A DNA stretch of 64,000 nt, taken from Centroscyllium fabricii (Eukaryota). The notes beneath the pieces are model-generated. The model was not told the origin of the DNA. It saw only the letters and a list, made by a program, of their open reading frames with translations, and did no database searches. Both the position numbers and the translations under genes were made by a program. This document shows positions 248 through 62,688 of the stretch, piece by piece (the first letter of the stretch is position 1; every line of letters begins with the position of its first letter). The DNA lies in assembly GCA_051313645.2 (NCBI GenBank), contig JBNRSN020000024.1, forward strand, positions 64,108,001 through 64,172,000, written 5' to 3'.

Positions 248-576
248 TAGGTTAAGCACCGGTAATCCGGCACCCGATGTTCCGGCAGCTTCAGTGGTCC
301 TGCACGATTGGAAACCGGCGCTCTTCATTTTGCGGAGCAGCCGCTCGGCGGCGCCACCGTTTCCCGGGAAGAGTGAGCGAGCACCGACGGCGTCGGTCAT
401 TTGGGTTTCTTTTTTTTGGGTTTTGTAAGTGTTTATCCCCGGGCTCCCTCCCGGGGAGTGTTCTACCCCCGCGCGCCGGGCCCCTGGGAGTGTTCTACCG
501 CGCGCTCCTCCCAAACCTTCAGTGGTTCAGAATTTTCAATGTTCCCGAGGGTGCCGGATTAACAGTGCTCAACCTG
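248..576 (+). mobile_element. pogo/Tigger-like MITE, family 1A (CAGGTTGAGCAC-type TIR)
   Basis: TA|TAGGTTAAGCACCGGTAATCCGG ... CCGGATTAACAGTGCTCAACCTG|TA; homologous to 1993-2341 and 44989-45431; internal CCCCGGGGAGTGTTCTAC repeats. Confidence 0.85.
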
Positions 577-578
577 TA

Positions 579-755
579 CAGTTCTGATGAAGGGTCATTG
601 ACCTGAAACATTAACTCAGTTTCTCTCTCTACGGGTCATCGACCTGAAACATTAACTCAGTTTCTCTCTCTACAGATGCTGGCTGACCTGCTAAATATTT
701 CCAGCATTTTCTGTGTTTATTTCAGATTTCCAGCATCCACAGTATTTTGTGTTTA
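579..755 (+). repeat. Penelope-type shark repeat with minimal hammerhead-like motif and a 41-bp tandem duplication (592-632/633-673)
   Basis: CTGATGA-A-GGGTC-ATT-GACCT-GAAA followed by GATGCTGGCTGACCTGCT...TTCCAGCATTTTCTG; same repeat at 29713, 59690 (minus) and 63821. Confidence 0.7.
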
Positions 756-1302
756 TGTTAGGGTTGTAAGATGTGCAGTTCCAATAGCTCTATTGCAGTT
801 TGTACTATATTTTGGTAAATGTACAATTGCCTGAGGAAATTTGAGTGGAGTTAGTGCTGTGTAGCATTGAAAAGAAGGGCAGTCCCTAATTGCAAATTGT
901 TGCAGATGTGTTCTTAGAATTCCGGCACTTTTCCTTCAAGGAGAATCTTGCTTATATTTTTTGGTGCATACTACAGCATAATTTGGCAGACTGTAATCTT
1001 TTTCAACAGTTGAGTGTAATATAGGGAGTGGCCTCAATTTACACACAAGCCTGACTGATAGATGAGATAAATTTGTCTATGGCTGTTGATGCTCCTTCTG
1101 CAGCATATGGCTAGTTTGATGTGAAATGTATGAAAGACCCATTTCATTTCATATCTCTGCATTTGATTTGAATTTGCAGCTTAATCTTTAATACAAATGA
1201 TGTGCGCTTAATTCTTATTTCAAGGTTTGGATTTAGGCTGTGTAACCAAGCAGGACTCCAGCAGTTTACTTCAGACCTGTGCATAATTAAAACTTCTGCC
1301 AT

Positions 1303-1708
1303 TACAGAGGGTTGTGAGGACGGCAGAAAAAATTATCAGGTGTACACTCCCAGCCATTGAAGAGATTTTCCAGACTAGATGTCGGAACAAGGCCCGTGCT
1401 ATTATTAAAGACCCCAACCACCCTGGGCACGATCTGTTCTCCCTCCTGCGATCTGGCCGTCGGTACCGCAGCATTCGAACCAGGACCAGCAGATTTAAAA
1501 ACAGTTTTTATCCACAGGCAGTGCGCCTACTGAACGGCTAACGGCAATTGTTATTATCTGTTTATTGATTATTAATTGTTTTTTATATTTACACTTGTTC
1601 TTACTTTTTACTTGTGCTTTTCTTCATCTATAAGTGTGGGAGTGAACGGGGAGTAAGCATTCCATTGTACTAGTTACATATGGCAAATAAAGGATCTTGT
1701 ATCTTGTA
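1303..1708 (+). mobile_element. Rex1/Babar-type LINE, 3' fragment
   Basis: LQRVVRTAEKII...[42 protein letters not shown], homologous to C-termini at 48191-48904 and 55533-56519; AATAAA plus ATCTTG tail. Confidence 0.85.
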
Positions 1709-1992
1709 CAGCAGGAAACATTTGCTGCACAGCGTCTGCCCCAAAACCTAAATAAAATCTGATTTCAGTGTGGGGAATTGAAGCCAACGATTGAATGGCC
1801 TACTCCTGCTCCTATTTCTTTAATCATGTGTTCTTAACATATTAATTCCTCAACTAATCGGCTATTTCATTAAAAAATATTTTAAATTAATGTAATGATG
1901 TGCGTATTATCCTAGCTGCAATCCAATTTTGGAACAGACTAATTTAATTTTGAAGTATGGAGCACAGAGGAACATGAGCTATAATGCAGGTA

Positions 1993-2341
1993 CAGGTTAA
2001 GAACCGTTAATCCGGCACCCTCGGGACCAGGCCGGTGCCGGACCACTGAAAATTCTGAACCTCTGAAGGTTCGGGGGGGGAGCGCGTGGTAGAACACTCC
2101 CCGGGGACTGGAGCGCGCGGGTAGAACACTCCCCGGGAGGGAGCCCGGGGATAGAACACTTACAAGCCCTAAAAAAGCAGCAACCCAAACGCCCGATGCC
2201 TTCGGCGCTCGCCCACCCTTCGCGGGAAATGGTGGCGCCGCCGCGAGGCTGCTCCGCAAACTGAAGACCGCCGGTTTCGATTCGTGCCGGACCACTGAAG
2301 GTGCCGGTCCATCAGGTTCTGGATTACCGGTGCTCAACCTG
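1993..2341 (-). mobile_element. pogo/Tigger-like MITE, family 1A
   Basis: TA|CAGGTTAAGAACCGTTAATCCGG ... GGATTACCGGTGCTCAACCTG|TA; reverse complement of 248-576. Confidence 0.88.
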
Positions 2342-3299
2342 TATTATAATCAGAACTTTGTACATAAATGTGTAGTGGTGGGTGTGGAGAAGAATAAATT
2401 AATTGTCCAACCTATAGCTGTTGTACAGCAACTTGCAACAAGCCCAGGACGTCACCATTTATTAATTTTGACGTGTAACTCTGCTCTTTTTCATACATCG
2501 CCAAGAATTATATTGCTAGTGTGTTTTTCTTCTTCCCTTGCCCATGTCCAGTCCACTCCACCCCACACACATAGTTCTGGTATATAGTCACACACAAAAG
2601 GCATGTTTAGCATTCCAGAGTGAGCCACTTTTGTATTGTACAAGCTTTGTAAACAGTGAGGGAGTTGCACCAAAAATGGTAACTTTTGTTTATTTGAAGT
2701 GCTGCCCTTTCTAGTGTTTATAACAAAAATTGTTTGTAAATATAGTTGAATGTCCTATATTAACCATCTCCCATCCATTCTAAATGATATGCCTCAGCCC
2801 AATTTTATTGTCTGTCAGAATCCATTGGTGCAGTACCGTATACCAGTTTGGCACTGTGTGATATTTTGAGTCAGATTAGATTGCCCTTTTTTTTCCCCCT
2901 GAGAAACCTTGTACATTCATTGGTCCAGCACTATTGAATTTTTCTTATTTTTCTCCTTGTGGAGTCAGAGGTAGCATTCTATGGTACAAAAGGCAATGAC
3001 CACTGTACCTTTTTAGTCTTTTATATCTTTTCCTAATTAAGGAATATGTTTCTTGAGAATTTCTGCATCTTGTCTCCTTACCATAGAAGACACCATGCAT
3101 CTCACAATTATTTTACATTGCACTTGATTGCAGGGTAACTTCAACCCCATTGCTTCTATACCCAGTGTAAAGAAAGCAGAACCAGTGGTACACTGAGATT
3201 GTCCTATATACGTAATGGAGAGAGACTAGGAGCTGTGGAGGAGTAAAGGGCTGCAGAGGTGTCCATGTGCACACAGCTACAAAATGCAAATCGAACGTG

Positions 3300-3450
3300 G
3301 GCCTTCACTTCAAGTGGGTTTGGAATTAAAACAATTAAGTAATGCTTCAGTTGTACAGAACCTTCATCAGACCCCATCTAGAGGACTGCATTCACTTTTG
3401 GGTACCACGCCTCAGGAAAGATATATTGGCCTTGGAAGGGGTGCAGGGCA
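3300..3450 (+). mobile_element. old CR1 ORF2 fragment
   Basis: Reads roughly MLQLYRTFIRPHLEDCIHFWVPRLRKDILALEGVQ, similar to the CR1 RT C-terminal region at 4025-4130. Confidence 0.55.
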
Positions 3451-3526
3451 ATTGAACAGACTTACTGATTTCAGTGATAATGTATGAAGCAGTTCATTGG
3501 GGCATTGTTGTAAAATTAATCATTAA

Positions 3527-6500
3527 AGAAACATAGAAACATAGAAGATAGGAGCAGGATTCGGCCCTTCGAGCCTGCTCCGCCATTCAAAGAGATCATG
3601 GCTGATCATCCAAATTCAGTACCCTGTCCCTGCCTTCTCCGCATATCCCTTGATCATTTCAGCCTGAAGAAATATATCCAACTCCTTCTTGAATATATTT
3701 AATGAACCGGCCTCCACTGCCCTCTGTGGCAGATAATTCCACAGGTTCACCACTCTCTGGGTGAAGAAATTTCCCCTCATCTCAGTCCTAAATGGCTTTC
3801 CCTTTATCCTTAGACTATGGCCCCTGGTTCTGGACTCCCCTTTCATCAGCAACATCCTTCCTGCATCCAGTCTGTCCAGGCCTGAAAGAGTCTTGTAGGT
3901 TTCGATGAGATCCCCTTTCAATCGTCTGAACTCCAGTGGGTATAAGCCCAATCGACTCAATCTCTCCCCATCCGTCACTCCTGCCATCCCCGGTATCAGC
4001 CTGGTGAATCTTCGCTGCACTCCTTCAATGGCAAGAATGCCCTTCCTCAGATGAGGCGACCAAAACTGCACACAATACTCGGTGTGGTCTCACCAAGGTC
4101 CTGTAGAGCTGCAGCAAGACATCCTTATTATATTCGAACTCTCTTGCTATGAAGGCCAACATACCATTTGCCTTCTTAACCGCCTGGTGCACCTGCATGC
4201 TTACCTTCAGTGACTGGTGCACAAGAACACCCAGGTCTCTTTGCACTTCCCCATCTCCCAATCTATTGTCATTCAAATAATAATCTGCCCTCCTGTTTTT
4301 GCCACCAAAGTGGATAACCTCACATTTATCCACATTGTAGTGCATTTGCCATGTATCTGCCCAATCCCCCAACCTGTCCAAATCACATTGGAGTTTCTCG
4401 ACACCCTCCTCACAGCATACCCTCCCACCCAGCTTTGTGTCGTCTGCAAATTTGGAGATATTACATCCAATTCCCTCGTCCAGATCATCAATATATATAT
4501 TGTGAACAGCTGGGGTCCTAGGACCGATCCTTGCGGTACCCCACCAGTCACTGCCTGCCACTCAGAAAATGACCCGTTTATTCCAACTCTCTGTTTTCTA
4601 TCTGCCAATCAGTTCTCTGTCCAAGTCAATACCTAGCCCCCAATCCCATGAGCCTTAATTTTGCATGCTAATCTCTTATGAGGGACCTTATCGAAAGCTT
4701 TCTGAAAGTCCAAATACACCACGTCTACTGGTTCTCCCCTATCTATTTTGCCAGTTACATCCTCAAAAAATTCCAGTAGATTAGTCAAGCACGATTTACC
4801 TTTTGTAAATCCATGTTGACTCTGTCTGATCCCGTCACTGTTTTTCATGTGCACTGCTATACATCTTTAATAATGGACTCTAGCATTTTCCCCACTACCG
4901 ATGTCGGGCTTACTGGTCTATAATTACCCGCTTTTTCTCGACCCCCCTTTTTGAATAGTGGGGTAACATTAGCTACCCTCCAATCCATGGGTACTGTTCC
5001 AGAGTCTATCGAGTTCTGGAAGATGATCAGCACTGCATCTGCTATCTCCAGGGCCACTTCCTTAAGTACCCTAGGATGTAGATTATCAAGCCCTGGGGAT
5101 TTGTCGGCCTTCAATCCCTTCAACTTCCCCAACACCATATCCCTACAAATACTGATTTCAATCAGTTCCCCCCTCTCATTAGTCCCTATGTTTCCCGACA
5201 TCTCTGGGAGGTTATTTGTGTCCTCCTTTGTGAAGACAGAACCAAAATATGTATTTAATTGGTCTGCCATTCCCCTGTTCCCCATTATATATTCCCCTGA
5301 TTCGGACTGCAAGGGACCGGCACTTGATTTCACCAATCTTTTCCTCTTAATATATCTATAAAAGCTTTTGCAGTCAGTTTTTATGTTTGCCGCAAGCTTA
5401 CTTCATAATCTATTTTCCCCCTCTTAATTAGTCCCTTTGTCCTCCTTTGCTGTATCCTAAACCGCTCCCAATCCTCAGGTCTGTTGCTTTTTTGGCCAAT
5501 TTATATGCCCTCTCTTTGGATTTTATGTTATCTCTAATTTACCTTGTTATCCACGGTTGAGTCCCCTTTTAATTTTTATGCCAAACTGGTATAAACAAGT
5601 TTTGTAATTCTTCCATTCAATCTTTGAATGTTTGCCATTGTCCATCCACCGCCAACCCCCTGAGCGACACCACCCAATCAATCCTACCCAACTTGCGTCT
5701 CATACCATCATAGTTCCCTTTACTTAAATTCAGGACCTTAGTCTCTGAGTCAATTTCTTCACTCTCCATCTTAAGTGAGAATTCGATCATATTATGATCG
5801 CACCGACCCAAGGGGCCTCGTACAACAAGATTGCTAATTAATTCTTTCTCATTGCATAATACCCAGTCTAAGATGGCCTGGTCCCGAGTTGGTTCCTCGA
5901 CATATTGGTCCAGATAACCATCCCATAAACATTCTAGGAATCCTCCTCCACCGTATATTTACTAATTTGGCTAGCCCAATCTATATGTAAAGTAAAGTCA
6001 CCCATGATGACAGCTGTGCCCTTACTGCATGCTTCTCTAATTTCCCTTTTAATGCCATCCCCAACCTCCACATTACTGTTTGGAGGTCTATATACCACTC
6101 CCACTAACGTTTTCTGCGCCTTGCTATTTCTCAGTTCTACCCATACAGATTATGCATCATCAGAGTTAATATCCTTCCTTTCAATTGTTAATCCCCTCTT
6201 TAACCAGCAATGCTACCCCACCGCCCTTTCTTTTTTGCCTATCCTTCCTAAATATTGAATACCCCTGGATGTTGAGTTCCCAGCCTTGGCCACCCTGGAG
6301 CCATGTTTCTGTAATCCCAATCAAATCATATTCGTTTACCTCTATTTCCGCAGCTAATTCATCTACCTTGTTCCGAATGCTCCTTGCATTAAGACACAAA
6401 GCCTTCAGGCTTGTTTTTTTCACGCTCTCAGACCTATATGAATTATTATTTCCTGTGACCATGTTTGATTTAACCCGTTGATTTCTCTGCCTTGTAATTT

Positions 6501-12855: not shown

Positions 12856-13213
12856 CAGGTTGAACACCATTAATCCGGCAGGGTCGGGACCAGCACCCTA
12901 CCGGATTCTTGAAAACACCGACTGATTAAAGCCACGGCGGCGCATGCGCACAGCATTCAAAATGGCCGCCGCGACATTTTGAATGATCTGCGCATGCGGC
13001 GCCGAACGGCGAGCGCATGCGCAGATCATTCAAAATGGCCACCAGAAGTTTTGAATGGTCTGCGCATGTGCTCGCCGTTCGGCGACGCATGCGCAGATCA
13101 TTCGCCGAAGCATCAATCGCGGCGGCCATTATGCGCAGGGCAGTCGGGACAATTTATGCCGCACGACTGAAGCTGCCGGCTTAATGGTTACTGGATTAAC
13201 GGTCTTCTACCTG
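12856..13213 (+). mobile_element. pogo/Tigger-like MITE, family 1B (no cargo)
   Basis: TA|CAGGTTGAACACCATTAATCC ... GGATTAACGGTCTTCTACCTG|TA; internal GCGCATGCGC and AAAATGGCC repeats. Confidence 0.88.
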
Positions 13214-18237: not shown

Positions 18238-18872
18238 CAGGTTGAGCACCGTTAATTCGGCACGGGCGGGAGAATGAAGCTGGCCAGTGCGCGCACCATT
18301 CAAAATGGCTGCGCGCATGTGCATAGCACTGCTATTGGCTGCCCCAAAGCTTTGAATGATTTGCGCATGCGCTGACAAACGGCGAGCACATGCGCAGATC
18401 ATGCGAAATGGCCGCCCCGAAGTTGTACCCTCGATGTCGGGCATCTGCTCCTCATCCGACAGGTCGGAGAAGGCCTCCTCCTTCTCCTCCTCGTCTCCCA
18501 GTGACTCCGAGTCGCTGTTGAAGCCGCTGTTGCTTTCCATGGGGTCGGCGTCTCCTGAAGCCATCGGGACGGTGAGTGTGAATGTGCCGGGATCAAAGGC
18601 TGGAGTGGGCTCTGCTGCTCTCTCTCACCTGTCCTCTCCTGTCTATCTGCTCGCCCCGACTGCCCTGCGCATGTGCAAAATGGCCGCCGCGATCGAGGCT
18701 TCGGCGAATGATCTGCGCATGCGCTCGCCGTTCGGTGGCGCATGCGCAGATCATTCGCTGAAGCCTCGGTCGCGGCGGCCATTTTGCGCATGCGCAGGGC
18801 AGTCGGGGCGATTTGTGCCGGACGACTGAAGTTGTCGGCTTTTCGGTTGCCCGATTAACGGTGCTCAACCTG
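18238..18872 (+). mobile_element. pogo/Tigger-like MITE, family 1B, with 226-bp cargo and internal hairpin
   Basis: TA|CAGGTTGAGCACCGTTAAT ... ATTAACGGTGCTCAACCTG|TA, perfect 19-bp TIR. Confidence 0.92.
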
Positions 18873-19190: not shown

Positions 19191-19447
19191 CAGGTTGAAC
19201 ACCATTAATCCGGCAGGGTTGGGACCAGCACCCTACCGAATTGTTGAAAACGCCGACTGATTGAAGCCACGGCGGCACATGCACACAGCATTCAAAATGG
19301 CTGCCGCGAAGTTTTGAATGATCTGCGCATGCGCTCGCCGTTCGGCGGCGCATGCGCGGCCATTTTGCGCAGGGCAGTCGGCGCAATTTATGCCGGACGA
19401 CTGAAGCTGTCGGGTTAACGGTTAACGGATTAACGGTGTTCAACCTG
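19191..19447 (+). mobile_element. pogo/Tigger-like MITE, family 1B (short, no cargo)
   Basis: TA|CAGGTTGAACACC ... GGTGTTCAACCTG|TA; near-identical start to the 12856 copy. Confidence 0.9.
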
Positions 19448-51598: not shown

Positions 51599-52268
51599 CA
51601 GGTACACAATCCTTTATCCGCTACTCCGAAAACCGAAATTACAAATGACCTGAGTTACGCGCGAAATATGACCCGCGCTCAGGCCACGACGGCCTCGATG
51701 CTCCCGGCCACGCAGGCCCCGATGCTCCCGGCCACACAGGCCCCGATGCTCCCGACGCCCAGCCACACAGGCCCCGATGCGCCCGGCCATGCAGGCCCTG
51801 ATGCTCCCAGCACCCATACCAGATGGCCCTGATGCTCCCGGCACCCAATGGCCCTGATGCTCCCGACACCCATACCAGATGGCCCCGATGCTCCCGGCAC
51901 CCGACGGCCTCGACGCTCCCGGCACCCGACAGCCTCGACGCTCCCAGCACCCGACGGCCTCGACGCTCCCGGCACCCGACGGCCTCGACGCTCCCGGCAC
52001 CCGACGGCCTCGACGCTCCCGGCACCCGACGGCCTCGACGCTCCCGGCACCCGACGGCCTCGACGCTCCCGGCACCCGACCGCTGATCTCCGATATTTTT
52101 ACAAATAAACTTTGCTAGACTATTTATAAACTGCTATTAGTTTTTATTTATCCCACTTTTTGTGAATATTCACAAGGTTCATGCAGAAATATTAATGTTA
52201 ATGCGACCATTCCGAAAATATCCGAAATCCGATAACCGAAGGTTTTCGGATAAAGGATTGTGTACCTG
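51599..52268 (+). mobile_element. pogo/Tigger4-like MITE, family 2, carrying a 25-bp minisatellite
   Basis: TA|CAGGTACACAATCCTTTATCCG ... CGGATAAAGGATTGTGTACCTG|TA; unit CCCGGCACCCGACGGCCTCGACGCT at ~51890-52080. Confidence 0.92.
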
Positions 52269-52384
52269 TACCAAATTAAAAACCTGCCTGTCTATCTATA
52301 AATATGTTTACAAGCATCAATCTCAAACTACCGCCATAGCTTTAGAATAGTTTGATTATAAATGTATATTTCTTGTTCCTTCAG

Positions 52385-52585: not shown

Positions 52586-54470
52586 GTGGGTGCATCATCT
52601 TGGATAATGCTTTTTCAGTTAGCTTTAATTTATAATATCAGATATGTGCTATGTCTTGTTTTTCTTTACTTTCTTGATTCACATTTTCTTTCCTCTATTT
52701 ACCTCCCGGCACACACACACTGGATTGGGTCTGATAGAACGGGAGGCAGGGCAGCCATGTACATCTCCACGACTTCCACTGATGGTGCTCTAGAGCCAGG
52801 TGCTGCAGTGCAACCCAAGGTAGAGCCACTGCCAATTTTCCCTCTCTCCTAGTCAGCTGGGCACCTTGTGTCTGCACGGTCCTCAACCAGACAACTCGCT
52901 GTCTGTGAGTGGAAATGTCAAACCGAATTGTGATTTGAATCAGGGTCTCCCATTCTGTGAGTCGGTTTCCTTTGGGTGACCTATCCTAAAATAGAAACCC
53001 AAGATTGCAATGATTAAATTCCTTCAGAGCAAACCACAAATGGGGGCAAGTTCCATGAACTCCAGCCTCCATTCTCATTGTGCCCTGCAGTACTCAACGT
53101 GTTCTTGTATTTTTGCTTTTTCTTGTCTCAAATATTATGTTGTAAAAAGATGAATCAGTGGTCTGCTACAGAAGGTCTTTGATTAAAACAGTAAAGCTTT
53201 CTGTTACTGGCCTGAATATGGCATAATTAACCATTTTATATTTTAAATGTAAAGATCTCTTTTTGTTTAGTGAAACATGAAGCTGGAATAAGGTCTTCTA
53301 GGAAGAACAGGTTAAACCAGTGAGGTGGAGCAAGTTTAGATTTGGTTGATTAGAATTAGTTTGCTCCCTGGGCCCATTCTCTTCATTCTCCTCTCCCCCT
53401 ATCTACCATAACAATATATTCTTGTAGCAATTAGCACAAAAAATTTATCTGTGTCTCTTTTCTGATGTCTCGAATTTTCCAGTGCTTATTTTTTTTCAAA
53501 AAACATACAACCACTATCTGCTTATATGGATTGGTTCAGAATTTGAGCCAGTTCCAAAAATACTTGAGCACTCTACACTTCCTGATTGGCTTCTGGAAGA
53601 TTTGAGCCAAACAGGAAGACTAACACTATCCACTTCATATCTTTCTCAAAACTTCTTTCATATCCACTAAGTCAATGTGAGCATTGCCACTGGAGATCCA
53701 CTAATATAATTATTTAATCTACAGTGCCTCAAAATCTTTTTTGTGTGTAAAGCTCCTAGTTTTAATTAATCCGCTTAAACATTTTGAGATTTTGTTTCTA
53801 GCAGGAATTTGGATCAAGAAAGACCTGTGTCATTAATAGGTATCATGTTGACCTGTTATGGTATTGTTCAATGGTGACCGTGTTATTTTCATACTATGTC
53901 CACTTGAACTGAGAATAGCACCCAGCAGTAAAGTTACAGATTCTGCTCTTACAAACTTAGGTTGTTCCTGGAGAGAGTAGCTTGAGATAGACATGTCACC
54001 ATCAGTCTTCCATTCTGTCACTTGTTTGGTAATGATGGGAACAGTGTGCCAGGTTGGAGTAACAGTGTTGCACAAAATGTATTCGCTTAAGTGTGGTTTT
54101 TTTTGTTTCACCATCCCCCCTGTCCCCACCAAAATCTCTTTGCTATTATGTGTTTTTGTATCAATATACTAAGTAAGCCTAGTGATAAAACTAATGTGCT
54201 ATTTTCAAACTGTCTCACTGTCCGTAAAGACAGACAAGGTGCTTTTTCAGCGGCTCGTGTTTGAAAAGCAATTTTTGTAATGGCTGAGATTTGTTAATTA
54301 AGACTTTCATATGAAGAAAGACATTTTAGACTTTGCAGCATTTATTTGGATCCAGGAATAGTGATCCACTCGCATTAAACTGGCTTCACTGTGCCTCCTG
54401 ATTAGCTCGTATGTATCACTGACCTGTACTATGGACTGTGGGATTCTCGTCCCAGAATACATTCTAATCG

Positions 54471-56665
54471 AGGCCATCCCCTGCCCCCACCTCGGGAAGT
54501 CCGACCACCTTTCACTATTCCTTGCCCCAGCATACAAACCACTCATCAAAAGGGTGAAAGCTCCAGTCAAAACAGTTGGAGTATGGCCAGAAGGGGCAGT
54601 CTCAGAGCTACAAGGCTGCATCGAACGCACTGAATGGAGCATGTTTGCTCATACAGACATCGAGGAATACGCATCCACAGTGCTATTCCACATCAACAGC
54701 TGTGTCGAGGTGGTCACTACCCAAAAAACCATCAAGACATTCCCCAACCAGAAACCCTGGATGAATGGGGAGGTCCACTCGCTGCTGAAAGCACACGACG
54801 CAGCTTTCAAATCTGGTGACGTGGCAGCTTACAGCACAGCCAGGGCCAACCTAAAGAGGGGAATCAGGTCTGCCAAACGCAATCAGACACTGAAGATAGA
54901 GGAACACTTCCACAACAACTCGGACCCTCGGCGTATGTGGCAAGGCATCCAGTCCATCACGGACTACAAGTGCAAGAACACCAGCCCCCCAACCAGCGAT
55001 GCCTCCCTACCGGAGGAACTCAACAACTTCTATGCTCGCTTTGACAGGGACAACAGGGAGCCAGCCACCAAAGTCCTGCAATCTCCGGAAGACCAGTTAC
55101 TAATACTGTCCTCCGATATAAGAGGTGCTCTACGTGGAGTGAACGCACGGAAGGCCGCGGGTCCTGATGGCATCCCTGGCCGGGCACTCAAAGACTGTGC
55201 TGACCAACTGGCTGAGATCTTCACCGACATCTTCAACCTGTCACTGGCGAAGGCAGCTGTCCCTACCTGCTTCAAGACCGCCACCATCATCCCTGTGCCC
55301 AAGAAAACGGCCGTGACGTGCCTGAATGACTACTGCCCTGTCTGTCGCACTCACACCAATAATCAGGAAGTGTTTTGAGCGGCTGGTCCTGGCCCACATC
55401 AAAGCCAGCGTCCCCGCCGCCCTCGACCAATAACAGTTCGCCTATCGAGGAAACAGATCAACGGAAGATGCGATCACAACGGCTCTTCACTCTGCACTAT
55501 ACCACCTGGATAGCAAAGATACATATATCGGAATGCTGTTTATAGACTACAGCTCAGCATTCAACACCATCGTCCCCAGCAAATTGACTACCAAACTCCT
55601 CACCCTCAGCCTGAACACCTCCCTCTGCAACTGGACCCTGGACTTCCTAACCAACAGACCACAGTCTGTGAAGTTAGGCAACCTCACGTTCCCCCACCTC
55701 CCCCCCCCCCCCCCACCCCCCCCCCCCCCACTTACCCTGAACACAGGGACCCCACAAGGCTCTGTACTGAGCCCTCTCCTCTACTCCCTCTTTACCCACA
55801 ACTGTGTGGCTGTCCACGGCTCCAACAAGATCATCAAGTTTGCGGACGACACCACGGTGGTTGGCCACATCACCAACAACGATGAGTCAGCCTACAGGGA
55901 TGAGATTCAGCGCCTTGTGGGATGGTGTGCCAACAACAACCTGGCACTGGATACCAAGAAAACCAAGGAGATCATAGTGGACTTCCGGAAGACTAAAAGC
56001 GGAAGACACGCCCCCATCTTCATCCAAGGGGCTGAGGTGGAAAGGGTGTCCAGCTTCAAGTTCCTCGGGGTCCACATCTCGGAAGACCTCTCCTGGTCAT
56101 TAAACACCTCCTCTCTGGTTAAGAAGGCCCAACAGCGCCTGTACTTCCTAAGGAAGCTGAAAAAAGCCAAGCTGACATCCAGCATCCTCACCAACGTCTA
56201 CCGCTGCACAATCGAAAGCATACTGACGAGCTGCATCACAGTCTGGTATGGAAATTGCACCATCTCGAACCGGAAGGCCCTGCAGCGGGTAGTCAAAACT
56301 GCCCAACGAATCACCGGCACCCAGCTACCATCAATTGAATGCACCTACCTCAAACGTTGCCTACGGAGGTCTCAGAACATTATTAAAGACCCCACACACC
56401 CCAGCCATAGTCTGTTTGCCCCCCTGCCCTCTGGGAGACGCTACAGATCAATTTGCACCCGCACGACCAGATTCAAGAACCGCTTCTTCCCCAGGGCTGT
56501 CAGTCTCCTGAACTCTTAACAAAAAATTCCAGTATCTGCACACCTGAAATGTACTTTATTGTATGAAATTGTATGTAACTTATTTGCACTACTCTCGGGA
56601 GCGGCGAGTCTTCGTTTCATTTTATTGTACTAGTACACTGCAATGACAATAAAATTGAATTGAAT
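54471..56665 (+). mobile_element. Rex1/Babar LINE, 5'-truncated, disrupted
   Basis: HLGKSDH endonuclease end, RT motifs including KFADDT, frameshift near 55345, premature TAA at 55431, poly-C insertion, (TTGAA)n tail. Confidence 0.95.
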
Positions 56666-58440
56666 ACAGGTTTTCATCCTAATGTATCTTTAGATAAATC
56701 CAGCACCATGCAAATGAATTCAGATTGATCCTAAGCCAATAATCTGTCAAAACTTCTGCTACATTCGTAAAGCTAAGAATAGTTGTTAAACTATCTGTAA
56801 ATATCTTGATTTAATTAACTTCTTGCTATCAACATTTTAGTCTCTTACATAGACCAGTGCTAGAATAAGATTTTGGGTGAGAAAAATGAGGTGAAGTTTA
56901 ATTATTAAATGGTAAATGTTAATCTAAATTTTCCTACATTAACCCTATGAAAGCTTGAAGAATAACACACAGGAGGAACTGTTTCACAGTCCTGGTTTTT
57001 TGCTCTAATTCTACTTTGTAATGTGGTGTCTTGAGTTAACAGTTTATATTTTTGTGTCCATAAAACAAGAAATGCCTGCAGATTTAAAAACTAAATTAAT
57101 GCTTGGAAGTTTATGCACTCCTTTTTGTTAACTTATGAAAGCACGTTTTATAACCATCAAAAATGATACAGTATTGCATTCCATTTTATATACCCAATCT
57201 TCACATGAAGCTCTAGTCAGTCCAAGAAATGTCAAGCGTATTTCCATCAATTAACAAAGGGAGAATTGGTTGCCCATCTCGGGGTGTCTGCTCACATCGT
57301 CTTCTAACATTTAGGTTGTATTGATTTAATATCCCAACCAAAAGGTCAAGTTGACAGAATGGATGACTGTTTATTTTGCTTGAATTGGAAAAGCTAATAA
57401 CTAAATATCACCGCAAGCAATCAAATTTGAGACTTGAAGCCCTGATTTTTAGTGCTATCTTAACAGTTGCTCACAGCGTGCCCAGACAAAGTAATTCCTT
57501 CGTATCTTATGATTAAAAGACTGGCTTCTGTCTACACGACAAGTAGTTAACTTCTGGCCTGAAGATCTGCATTATCCAGAGAGTATAAACGGTAAATCTT
57601 TCTTGGGTTAGATATGGCTTCATATCTCAATCGTGGCAAATTATTGTAGAAATGTGAGTTATTGCATTTCAAGAGTATGTGTGGATTGTGAGTGAGCACT
57701 ATTTCTAGCTCCCTTTATTAATAGAGAAACCATAAACATACCCTATTTGTAGGCTCCTACATTAGTATTTTGCAGATCACCTCCTGTGTTAATAGCTAAA
57801 AATTCTGCTTTTTCCAAAACAGTAATTACATTTTTGTTAGCCTAGTTGTACTGTAACATCAGTTATCCCTGTGGACTACAGCAGTATTCTGACACCTTGT
57901 TTTTGAATAATATAAGGTAATAGATAAACTAAAATAACAACAGTTACAGAATGAAGTAATCCGAAGTGCAAAAAGCTGTCCCATATGAACTGCCAAAACA
58001 ATGAGGGTGTTAGTTTACAAAATAGATCTGTAGGCTATAATTATAAGGAGGCAATACTTGGAACATATGAAATGTTAATGCGAACATATATGGAGTGTTA
58101 AGTTCAACTTTGGGTCACTATGGGTTTAATTTCTTCTATTCATTGCTAGTGAAGGGTCAGCACAAGTATAAGTTCATCCTCCCATCAACTTTTTCGCCAT
58201 TGTTATCAAATTGAGGAAAATATATCCATATATTCGGCAAGACAGGATTTGGGAAGCGTTTGAAGATGACTAATAGCATGCCGCTGAGTTTCTAATGGAT
58301 AAAAGAAGCCAAAGGCGGGATAGAGTCTGGGCTTTGTATTTTCATGGACCACTTGGATATATACCACAGTGTCTCTCCGTTCTCGTATGAAGTTTAAATC
58401 AATGCTCCCATTAATGTGCATGTATCCCAAGCTGCAATTA

Positions 58441-59158
58441 CAGGTACACAATCCCTTAACTGCACATCCAAACACTGAAAAGCTCTGAAAACCGAAATTT
58501 CAAATGACCCGAGTTGCATGCAAAAATGACACGACGCACTTTATTGAATGTTTCCCTTACAAATAAACTTTATTAGAGCATTTATAAACTGCTTATAGTC
58601 GTTCTTTATCGCACTTTTGTGAATACAAAATGGCCACCGGAAGTTTAAACTCAGCGGCTGCAGCCAATCACAGCCCCCGGGCGCTCTCACCACCTGACCT
58701 TAGACAGGCAAGCTCCACCAATCACAGCCTAGCTCACACACCACCTGATCCTAGACAGGCAGATTCCACCAATCACAGCCCAGCTCACACACCACCTGAT
58801 CCTAGACAGGCAGATTCCACCAATCACAGTCCCGGGCTGCTCCTCATACATCACCTGACCCCAGACCACCAATCACAGCTTCGGGCTGAGCCTCATACAC
58901 CACCTGACCCCCAGACAGTTAAATCTCACCAATCACAGCCCACCTCACAAACCACCTGACCATAGGCAGGCAAGCTCCACCAAGCATCAATCGCGGTGGC
59001 CATTTTGCACATGCGCAGGGCAGTCGGTGTTCAACCTGTATTTACAAGATTTGCTGCAGAAAAACGTATGTTAATTGCGCCCATTCCGAAAACCGAAATT
59101 ATCCAAAATCCGAGAACCACCCGGTCCTGAGGTTTTCGGATAAAGGATTGTGTACCTG
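58441..59158 (+). mobile_element. pogo/Tigger4-like MITE, family 2, with nested insertion
   Basis: TA|CAGGTACACAATCC ... GGATTGTGTACCTG|TA; collinear with 51599-52268 once 58626-59040 is removed. Confidence 0.9.
58626..59038 (+). mobile_element. deleted family-1B MITE carrying a ~51-bp CCAAT minisatellite
   Basis: Flanked by TA (58624-25, 59039-40); right end GGTGTTCAACCTG; six CCAATCACAG motifs. Confidence 0.82.
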
Positions 59159-59689
59159 TACTAAGAATATTCTGATTAACCCACCAATAAAGGATCATTG
59201 CTGAGATTAGCCTTTTCCAAGCCTCCATCCCCATGAAATTCAAACAGGATAAATCAGTGAATAAGAAATAAGTGAAAATAGAAAATAATTATCTGGGCTA
59301 TATAGTTTAGAGTTGCTAAACTTTGGCCCACAGGTGGTAGTTTGAACACCCATGGTCTAAGGAAATTACATCTGCTCTCACTGAAGAAAAAAAGAATATA
59401 GGGAAAAGAATGTTATTTGTGCTCGAGCAAAGAAAAGTTTGGGGACTTGATTATAGGCTGAGAAAACCTCAAGTTTAAATTGAACTGAGATTTACTGTTT
59501 CTCACTTGGAAAATTTATTTGCAGAAGACTACCACATGGGTGCAATGGTTTTGTTTGGAATATTAATAAAATTCAACAACGAGCGCATTTATTTGGTGCC
59601 TTTTAATGTGAAGCATCCCAACATGCTTCACAAAAAACCTCAAGTGGAAAGGGATTATAGACACGAAGCAGGTGGTAGAAGAAGATTTT

Positions 59690-62480: not shown

Positions 62481-62688
62481 TTTAAGACACAAGTTGGTTG
62501 AATATTGCTGGGAAAGAAATAATTGCTGTACTTTTGTCTACTTAACAGTCATTTGTATGAAATGTTTCAGGTGTTTCAATACGATTGAGTCCTATATAAC
62601 CACATGCTGTATCTTGCCTGGAATATTTAGTTGTGGTCGAAGTACTTTTATTTAAACTATTCCTCTTGTTTGTTTTCTCTTAATGCAG

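Follow-up and report, generated by a model that had tools for sequence, protein, structure and literature searches.

A CCAAT-box array in a nested, TA-inserting mini-transposon of Centroscyllium fabricii, and an arm-hairpin tip as a probable, loosely placed hotspot for deletions and captures

The window analysed here, a 64,000-nt stretch of Centroscyllium fabricii DNA (contig JBNRSN020000024.1, positions 64,108,001 to 64,172,000, forward strand), contains a composite mini-transposon in which an inner element loaded with a tandem CCAAT-box array is nested in an outer element. A phosphatase exon (PF00782, E = 5e-23) lies on one side of the composite and a later open frame, at 62684, on the other; the composite therefore likely lies within an intron of a dual-specificity phosphatase gene, which we take to be slingshot. 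The same intron hosts two long open frames resembling pieces of a LINE reverse transcriptase (54365–56500). The window also holds another copy of the outer family and further copies of the inner family, both empty and loaded. The features are as follows:

58439–59160, plus strand: whole composite mini-transposon including its TA duplications (outer element 58441–59158; outer terminal repeats at 58441 and 59145)
58441–58623, plus strand: left arm of the outer family, aligning to the window's second outer-family copy (51600–52270)
58626–58646, plus strand: inner left-arm remnant, consisting of the linker (the hairpin loop in empty copies)
58647–58981, plus strand: cargo, a tandem array of six CCAAT boxes in units of 49–60 nt
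58982–59038, plus strand: inner right arm, reduced to a remnant by a microhomology deletion and retaining its terminal repeat
59041–59158, plus strand: right arm of the outer family, aligning to 52167–52274
51600–52270, plus strand: outer-family copy without a nested insertion, its TA at 52167–52168 unoccupied
12856–13213, plus strand: empty inner-family copy, one long hairpin with the linker at its tip (near 13036–13048)
19191–19447, plus strand: another empty copy of the inner family, placed near CCAAT-cargo copies in the arm tree
18238–18872, plus strand: inner-family element with a short DDX60-like cargo and an inverted duplication in its right arm
18425–18655, minus strand: cargo, comprising the 5′ leader and a truncated coding exon 1 from a DDX60-like gene (start codon 18562–18564)

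The inner element (58626–59038) is bounded by TA at 58624–58625 and 59039–59040, and the window's other outer-family copy has, at the aligned position, a single TA (52167–52168), bearing out the nesting first read from the sequence. A search of the 7.2-Gb genome with the array returned 1373 first-look candidates, of which 40 were scored and 30 loci were read. The composite is present with differing flanks in 25 of these 30 loci (the window copy counted among the 25), and 19 of the 25 have the window's left junction; in five of the 30 the inner element stands by itself and keeps its left terminal repeat. This distribution gives the order of events: the array was loaded first, the loaded element then inserted into an outer-family copy, and the resulting composite transposed as a whole, its inner arms eroding. 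While spreading, the composite lineage lost more inner arm and captured one further host piece. Microhomology deletions had been proposed for both ends of the inner element. The right-arm deletion, with 3 nt of microhomology, is confirmed by the longer right arms of L028 and L029, whereas the left one, with 2 nt, is a possible deletion that fits the sequence; none of 70 rows has a complete inner left end within the outer element, and intermediates L028, L029, and L267 have a different left deletion. The outer-family copy without an insertion has a GC-rich tandem array of its own (51687–52080; periods 25, 31, and 56), so the outer family varies its interior too. One composite copy (L273:1470–1516) has a short stretch inverted in place whose end lies in the linker, the outcome expected from a fold-back template switch.

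All six boxes of the array described in the sequence-only reading, with its core unit of 51 bp, were located: CCAAT boxes start at 58664, 58718, 58769, 58820, 58869, and 58929, each is followed by an E-box-like hexamer, the units measure 54, 51, 51, 49, and 60 nt, and the TRF period is 51. Among copies, the number of units per array ranges from 1 to 16 (six units in 27 of 67 rows). The cargo occupies the place of 13052–13107 of an empty copy, i.e. the 56-nt 3′ arm of the hairpin, and the arms of CCAAT-cargo copies nest among those of empty copies in the arm tree (node 88/99). Searches for an arm-free parent of the array, which covered part of the candidates or near-exact words, yielded none among 59 loci read (30 + 15 + 14), all of which are transposon copies; two candidate donors, L224 and L231, turned out to be composite copies. 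We infer a host origin for the array and a primary capture at its junction; this junction may be secondary as well, since the donor was not found among the loci read. Other copies (L053, L058–L060, and the L092 type) have a different, though related, CCAAT array of 51-nt units loaded onto the DDX60-like exon, with GC-rich promoter-like DNA following the array.

The linker contains a YY1-like match at 58627 and an ETS-like match at 58637, and we take these labels, like the NF-Y and NRF1-like ones, to denote consensus matches. The promoter that had been read from this combination is not upheld across copies. CpG sites differ from the majority at 11–12% in 18 composite copies, versus 3.4% elsewhere, and thus decay ~3.5 times faster, as expected for methylated passengers, which the composite copies likely are. 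The CCAAT boxes seemed better kept in the same 18 copies (1.3% divergence, p = 0.003), but this did not replicate in 37 independent rows (2.9% vs 4.5%, p = 0.086). Across copies, the unmethylated CpGs and conserved sites of an active CpG-island-type promoter are not seen, and the window copy looks like a decaying passenger.

Palindromic modules of 52 nt, together with short linkers, make up the arms of the inner family. The empty copy at 12856 forms one long hairpin (−127.5 kcal/mol, z −16.3) with the linker at the tip, and the junction common to the 58647 and 18425 copies is the tip of this main hairpin. Specifically, the CCAAT cargo starts three bases past the end of the linker motif and the 18425 cargo two bases past it, while empty copies continue from the linker with the following module of the repeats (at 13045 and 19308), so that the reported agreement of the two window junctions within 1 nt holds. 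Further unrelated cargos begin within a few bases of the hairpin-tip junction.

A 30-nt pattern from the left end of the inner family has 18,717 exact matches genome-wide, and a control pattern has none. In a sample of 90 copies taken in positional order from one contig (30 loci and 60 further), nine have no cargo (three of these nine necessarily so, because they belong to the arm library), and the cargo-bearing rest fall into 12 left-junction classes with at least two members, plus singletons. The same main classes recur among 205 full copies, a larger set selected in part by cargo. Four of the left-junction classes are minisatellites, apparently derived from the arm itself. First-look candidates per cargo class, which are not copy numbers, range from 313 to 5445. 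Some cargos read as host gene starts, on Pfam matches that are weak and below the curated cut-off: an NPRL2-like cargo (PF06218, model positions 3–23, E = 0.018) and a CENP-W-like cargo (E = 0.0055). The former reads as a head-to-head promoter (L157:219–597 and L164:1475–1849; 5445 first-look candidates), with an NPRL2-like first coding exon on one strand and, on the other, what is presumably a CYB561D2-like exon without Pfam support. A stricter search for an NPRL2-like donor came back empty, and of 40 loci taken from the search with 5445 candidates, the 30 read are all transposon copies.

Arm-free host donors were traced for three cargos. L294 is the donor of the DDX60-like cargo. L191 is the donor, at 98% identity and comprising exon plus intron, of the cargo class of L149, and this class (L149 and L181–L190; ~98% identical copies, 313 candidates) is young and carries an internal lysine-rich exon with intron. 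L251 is a donor, at 95%, of a piece taken up by the composite lineage; a search with this piece gave 14 matches, 13 of them transposon copies. In that composite lineage (L250–L262), the end of a host exon and the start of its intron (parent L251:1440–1640) were captured beside a short-unit repeat, and L231 is a later deletion form of this capture. Captures took place at the DNA level, because introns are kept in L149/L191 and in the long DDX60-like form. With three host donors in hand and many copies in different flanks, the proposal that the family samples and disperses promoter-like or coding cargo stands.

The 18425 cargo is exon 1 of a DDX60-like helicase gene. It matches the arm-free donor L294 at 199 of 220 aligned bases (90%), and open frames 4.5 and 14 kb downstream of the L294 exon 1, on the same strand, match PF23002, the DDX60 PIN-like domain (E = 1e-29 and 2e-40); we infer that exon 1 is spliced to these frames. 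Protein searches with the 18425 peptide found no relatives in a first round and only two low-complexity matches in a second. A search pattern excluding the usual arm junction returned 16 loci, one of which, L281, has the exon extended in frame to the splice donor and into the intron. The extension has three matches: two are long copies (L281 and L295), and the third is L294, the parent without arms. Three other loci considered as exon donors, L278–L280, are family copies with another insertion.

The two long forms place the 18425 junction in a different light. L281 and L295 hold ~113 nt more donor DNA than the short form, and their arm joint lies in the module loop, a different hairpin loop ~30 nt beyond the linker; their right junction is common to the short form L047. 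The short form (2093 candidates) lacks ~29 nt of arm and ~113 nt of donor. Because the long forms keep more donor and join the arm elsewhere, the 18425 junction is secondary and not the point at which host DNA entered, and the claim that two acquisitions share a left breakpoint falls. Long and short DDX60-like forms are in different clades of the arm tree, and the arms are mosaic; the short form would have arisen either by deletion in place or by transfer into another arm lineage. In the 18425 subfamily, the right-arm inverted duplication (18651–18811) is fixed as a new 160-nt palindrome.

The inner family is Pack-TIR-like and is not a cassette site. In particular, terminal inverted repeats and a target duplication surround the whole unit; the 18425 cargo has an arm-free parent (L294), as do the cargos traced to L191 and L251; capture was at the DNA level, with introns kept; and transposition followed capture, with many copies in different flanks. 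Crossover positions are not fixed and donors have no common site. Most full inner-family copies have TA on both sides, and the short terminal repeat begins CAG, the features of a Tc1/mariner-pogo (Tigger) MITE; we take this combination as the link to pogo/Tigger. An autonomous DDE_1 element sharing the terminal repeat was found at 0 of 30 loci read (150 scored, 1715 candidates). At two of the 30 (L070:2060–2350; L077:1331–1464 and 2375–3078), family copies lie within, or at the broken end of, pogo-type DDE_1 transposase genes, and not as their ends.

Junctions of the cargo classes cluster on the folded arm. They were placed by hand on a 73-nt repeat unit, with left and right arms folded together and with minisatellite-type classes and singletons left out. 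In this tally, 12 of 19 junctions fall in positions 11–22 (p = 6e-6; 4e-5 for six windows), an interval picked after seeing the data, with positions uncertain by some bases where the donor was not traced, as for most cargos, and with junctions inside a single arm clade possibly inherited. With relatives pooled, positions 11–22 hold 5 of 12 junctions (p = 0.034), and the two loops taken together hold 9 of 12 (p = 0.011). Three distinct arm groups have junctions in this zone (NPRL2-like; CCAAT and long DDX60-like; and a large clade). Junctions are scattered over ~12 nt (11–22) and also lie at 37–47 and elsewhere, with a second cluster at the module loop; the L251 piece is joined ~17 nt left of the linker end, and in L149, L132, L077, and the L092 type the break is inside older cargo on at least one side. 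Breakpoints are thus clustered and not uniform in the hand-placed tally (5/12 pooled, p = 0.034), although other break sites exist. The hairpin-driven hotspot suggested by the sequence-only reading survives as far as hairpin-tip junctions cluster, but other captures broke elsewhere in the arm or in older cargo, and its cassette-like site does not survive the 12-nt spread, the second cluster, and the several captures broken elsewhere.

We favour, with moderate confidence, the reading that the window element, a trimmed inner portion of a nested mini-transposon that inserts at TA and exists in many copies, belongs to a family carrying captured host DNA between constant arms, and that the tip of the arm hairpin is a loose rearrangement hotspot for deletions as well as captures. 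The hairpin, or a cruciform, would stall copying or be cut near its loop, during replication or excision-gap repair; the broken end would be filled from unrelated DNA or another family copy with 0–4 nt of microhomology; loss of one hairpin arm would stabilise the product; a transposase acting in trans would amplify the loaded element; and the amplified copies would then decay, likely as methylated passengers.

The main rival to a hotspot is survivor bias, i.e. selection for minimal arms: breaks would occur anywhere, and only copies keeping a minimal arm up to the linker could be mobilised. We regard this as rather unlikely, and the evidence cuts both ways. A linker-like motif is retained by the left arm of the amplified cargo classes seen. 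Among private deletions, for which no further transposition is required, linkers receive 1 of 62 ends by hand count, versus ~4 expected; this test, made in two clean classes (DDX60-short-1 and NPRL2-like; pooled script totals, which include two mixed classes, were not used), is weak because copies of these classes no longer have an intact main hairpin. In the same count, stems receive 6 of 12 ends in the NPRL2-like class (66 of 636 nt being stem) and 10 of 50 in the DDX60-short class (133 of 690 nt), the latter being no excess. Against survivor bias, it sets only an inner limit on the arm and leaves the stop of junctions within ~12 nt unexplained; more arm is tolerated, the long DDX60-like and NPRL2-like forms keeping 25–30 nt extra; and the L092-type class, 7 of 90 copies, ends just before the second linker.

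A more ambitious form of the hotspot reading makes the palindromic arms a built-in capture engine, with loops that break or stall, gaps filled preferentially from open promoters and first exons, loaded forms amplified to hundreds or thousands and then reloaded, and some becoming working regulatory elements. We consider it unlikely; if true, ready-made NF-Y arrays and gene starts have been spread across the genome.

The clustering could also reflect descent. One early junction at the linker would have been inherited while later cargos replaced the interior, so that one event is counted repeatedly, and indeed a single arm clade (100/100) takes in six cargo classes, some copies are mosaics of older and newer cargo (L132, L149, and L077), and the tally falls to 5 of 12 once relatives are pooled. 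Zone junctions nevertheless occur in three separate arm groups and lie several bases apart, and most classes have no remnant of a shared first cargo; shared descent as the whole explanation seems improbable to us.

A single longer ancestral element as the source of both cargos is very improbable. In five of the 30 loci from the exon search, a CCAAT array with a 51-nt unit does accompany the DDX60-like exon, and this array resembles the focal one beyond the box, three of its five units beating at least 499 of 500 shuffles. But the two arrays differ in their unique flanks, their units are only ~60% alike, and the focal array is joined to the exon in none of the loci read. The exon has an arm-free donor, L294, whose 80-kb surroundings contain no such array, which largely refutes common ancestry as far as the exon is concerned; the most plausible account of the five loci is therefore a second capture, made by a copy that already had the exon. 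Site-specific, integron-like capture at the linker is scarcely credible: two window junctions are 1 nt apart, but junctions vary over 12 nt and extend to other loops, that at 18425 is secondary, and donors share no end sequence with the arm and show little or no microhomology.

The mechanism of host-DNA capture by TIR transposons is unsettled because parents and intermediates are rarely available. For the DDX60-like cargo, the parent copy, a rare long intermediate, and the amplified short form all survive, and junctions can be placed on a folded structure, making a role of hairpins in capture testable. A junction common to high-copy forms can be a later deletion and not the point of capture.

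Plant Pack-MULEs and Pack-TYPE elements are multicopy, carry chimeric cargo from several genes, and lean to GC-rich gene starts. The inner family has multicopy, chimeric cargo and the leaning to GC-rich gene starts in common with them, but its target duplication (TA) and its short terminal repeats indicate Tc1/mariner-pogo and not to Mutator or CACTA, and its arms are internal palindromic arrays and not long TIRs. Human MER46 and MER44 are Tigger/pogo-derived MITEs with a TA duplication and a CAG-starting terminal repeat. The inner family resembles such MITEs in TA duplication, CAG-starting repeat, non-autonomy, and nesting at TA sites, and differs in that its interior is replaced by host DNA and not simply deleted.

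In animal Pack-TIRs, as described by Tan et al. 2021 (PMC8277862), the route of capture is gap filling or fork stalling with template switching, the latter being proposed, in repetitive arms, for multicopy cases, and breakpoints are skewed to the element interior, which is put down to fragile sites. The inner family shares with them the non-autonomous TIR element with captured genomic DNA and an arm-free parent elsewhere, little or no microhomology, and distinct target duplications. It is unlike them in its serial mosaic captures and its junctions tied to particular hairpin loops, and in abundance: only four of the animal elements (1.4%) are multicopy, a frog example having three copies (the figure given for Pack elements in rice is 36%), versus 313–5445 first-look candidates per class here. 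The main text of that paper does not contain the words hairpin, palindrom, or shark. A limited search of the open literature, over titles and the starts of abstracts, found no paper tying Pack-element junctions to hairpin loops or describing the inner family.

Asymmetric deletions at palindrome centres are known from the mouse germ line and cells (PMC8701086), and centre-break resolution there has the same outcome, with central symmetry broken and the palindrome stabilised. The mouse case concerns a long perfect transgene palindrome with mostly small deletions, spacer inclusion being uncommon, whereas the inner family has a short quasi-palindrome in a transposon, replacement by foreign DNA, and later amplification. 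Yeast Mre11 is reported to attack only loops under 9 nt (PMC8053094). The linker loop measures ~13 nt by simple pairing, so cutting at the tip is less certain than stalling and switching.

Several unrelated family copies (L091, L119, L173, L189, L193, and L278–L280) contain, by eye, what is seemingly one short LTR-like element. L278–L280 represent a single such insertion triplicated on one contig, and a preference of this element for GC-rich family copies is possible.
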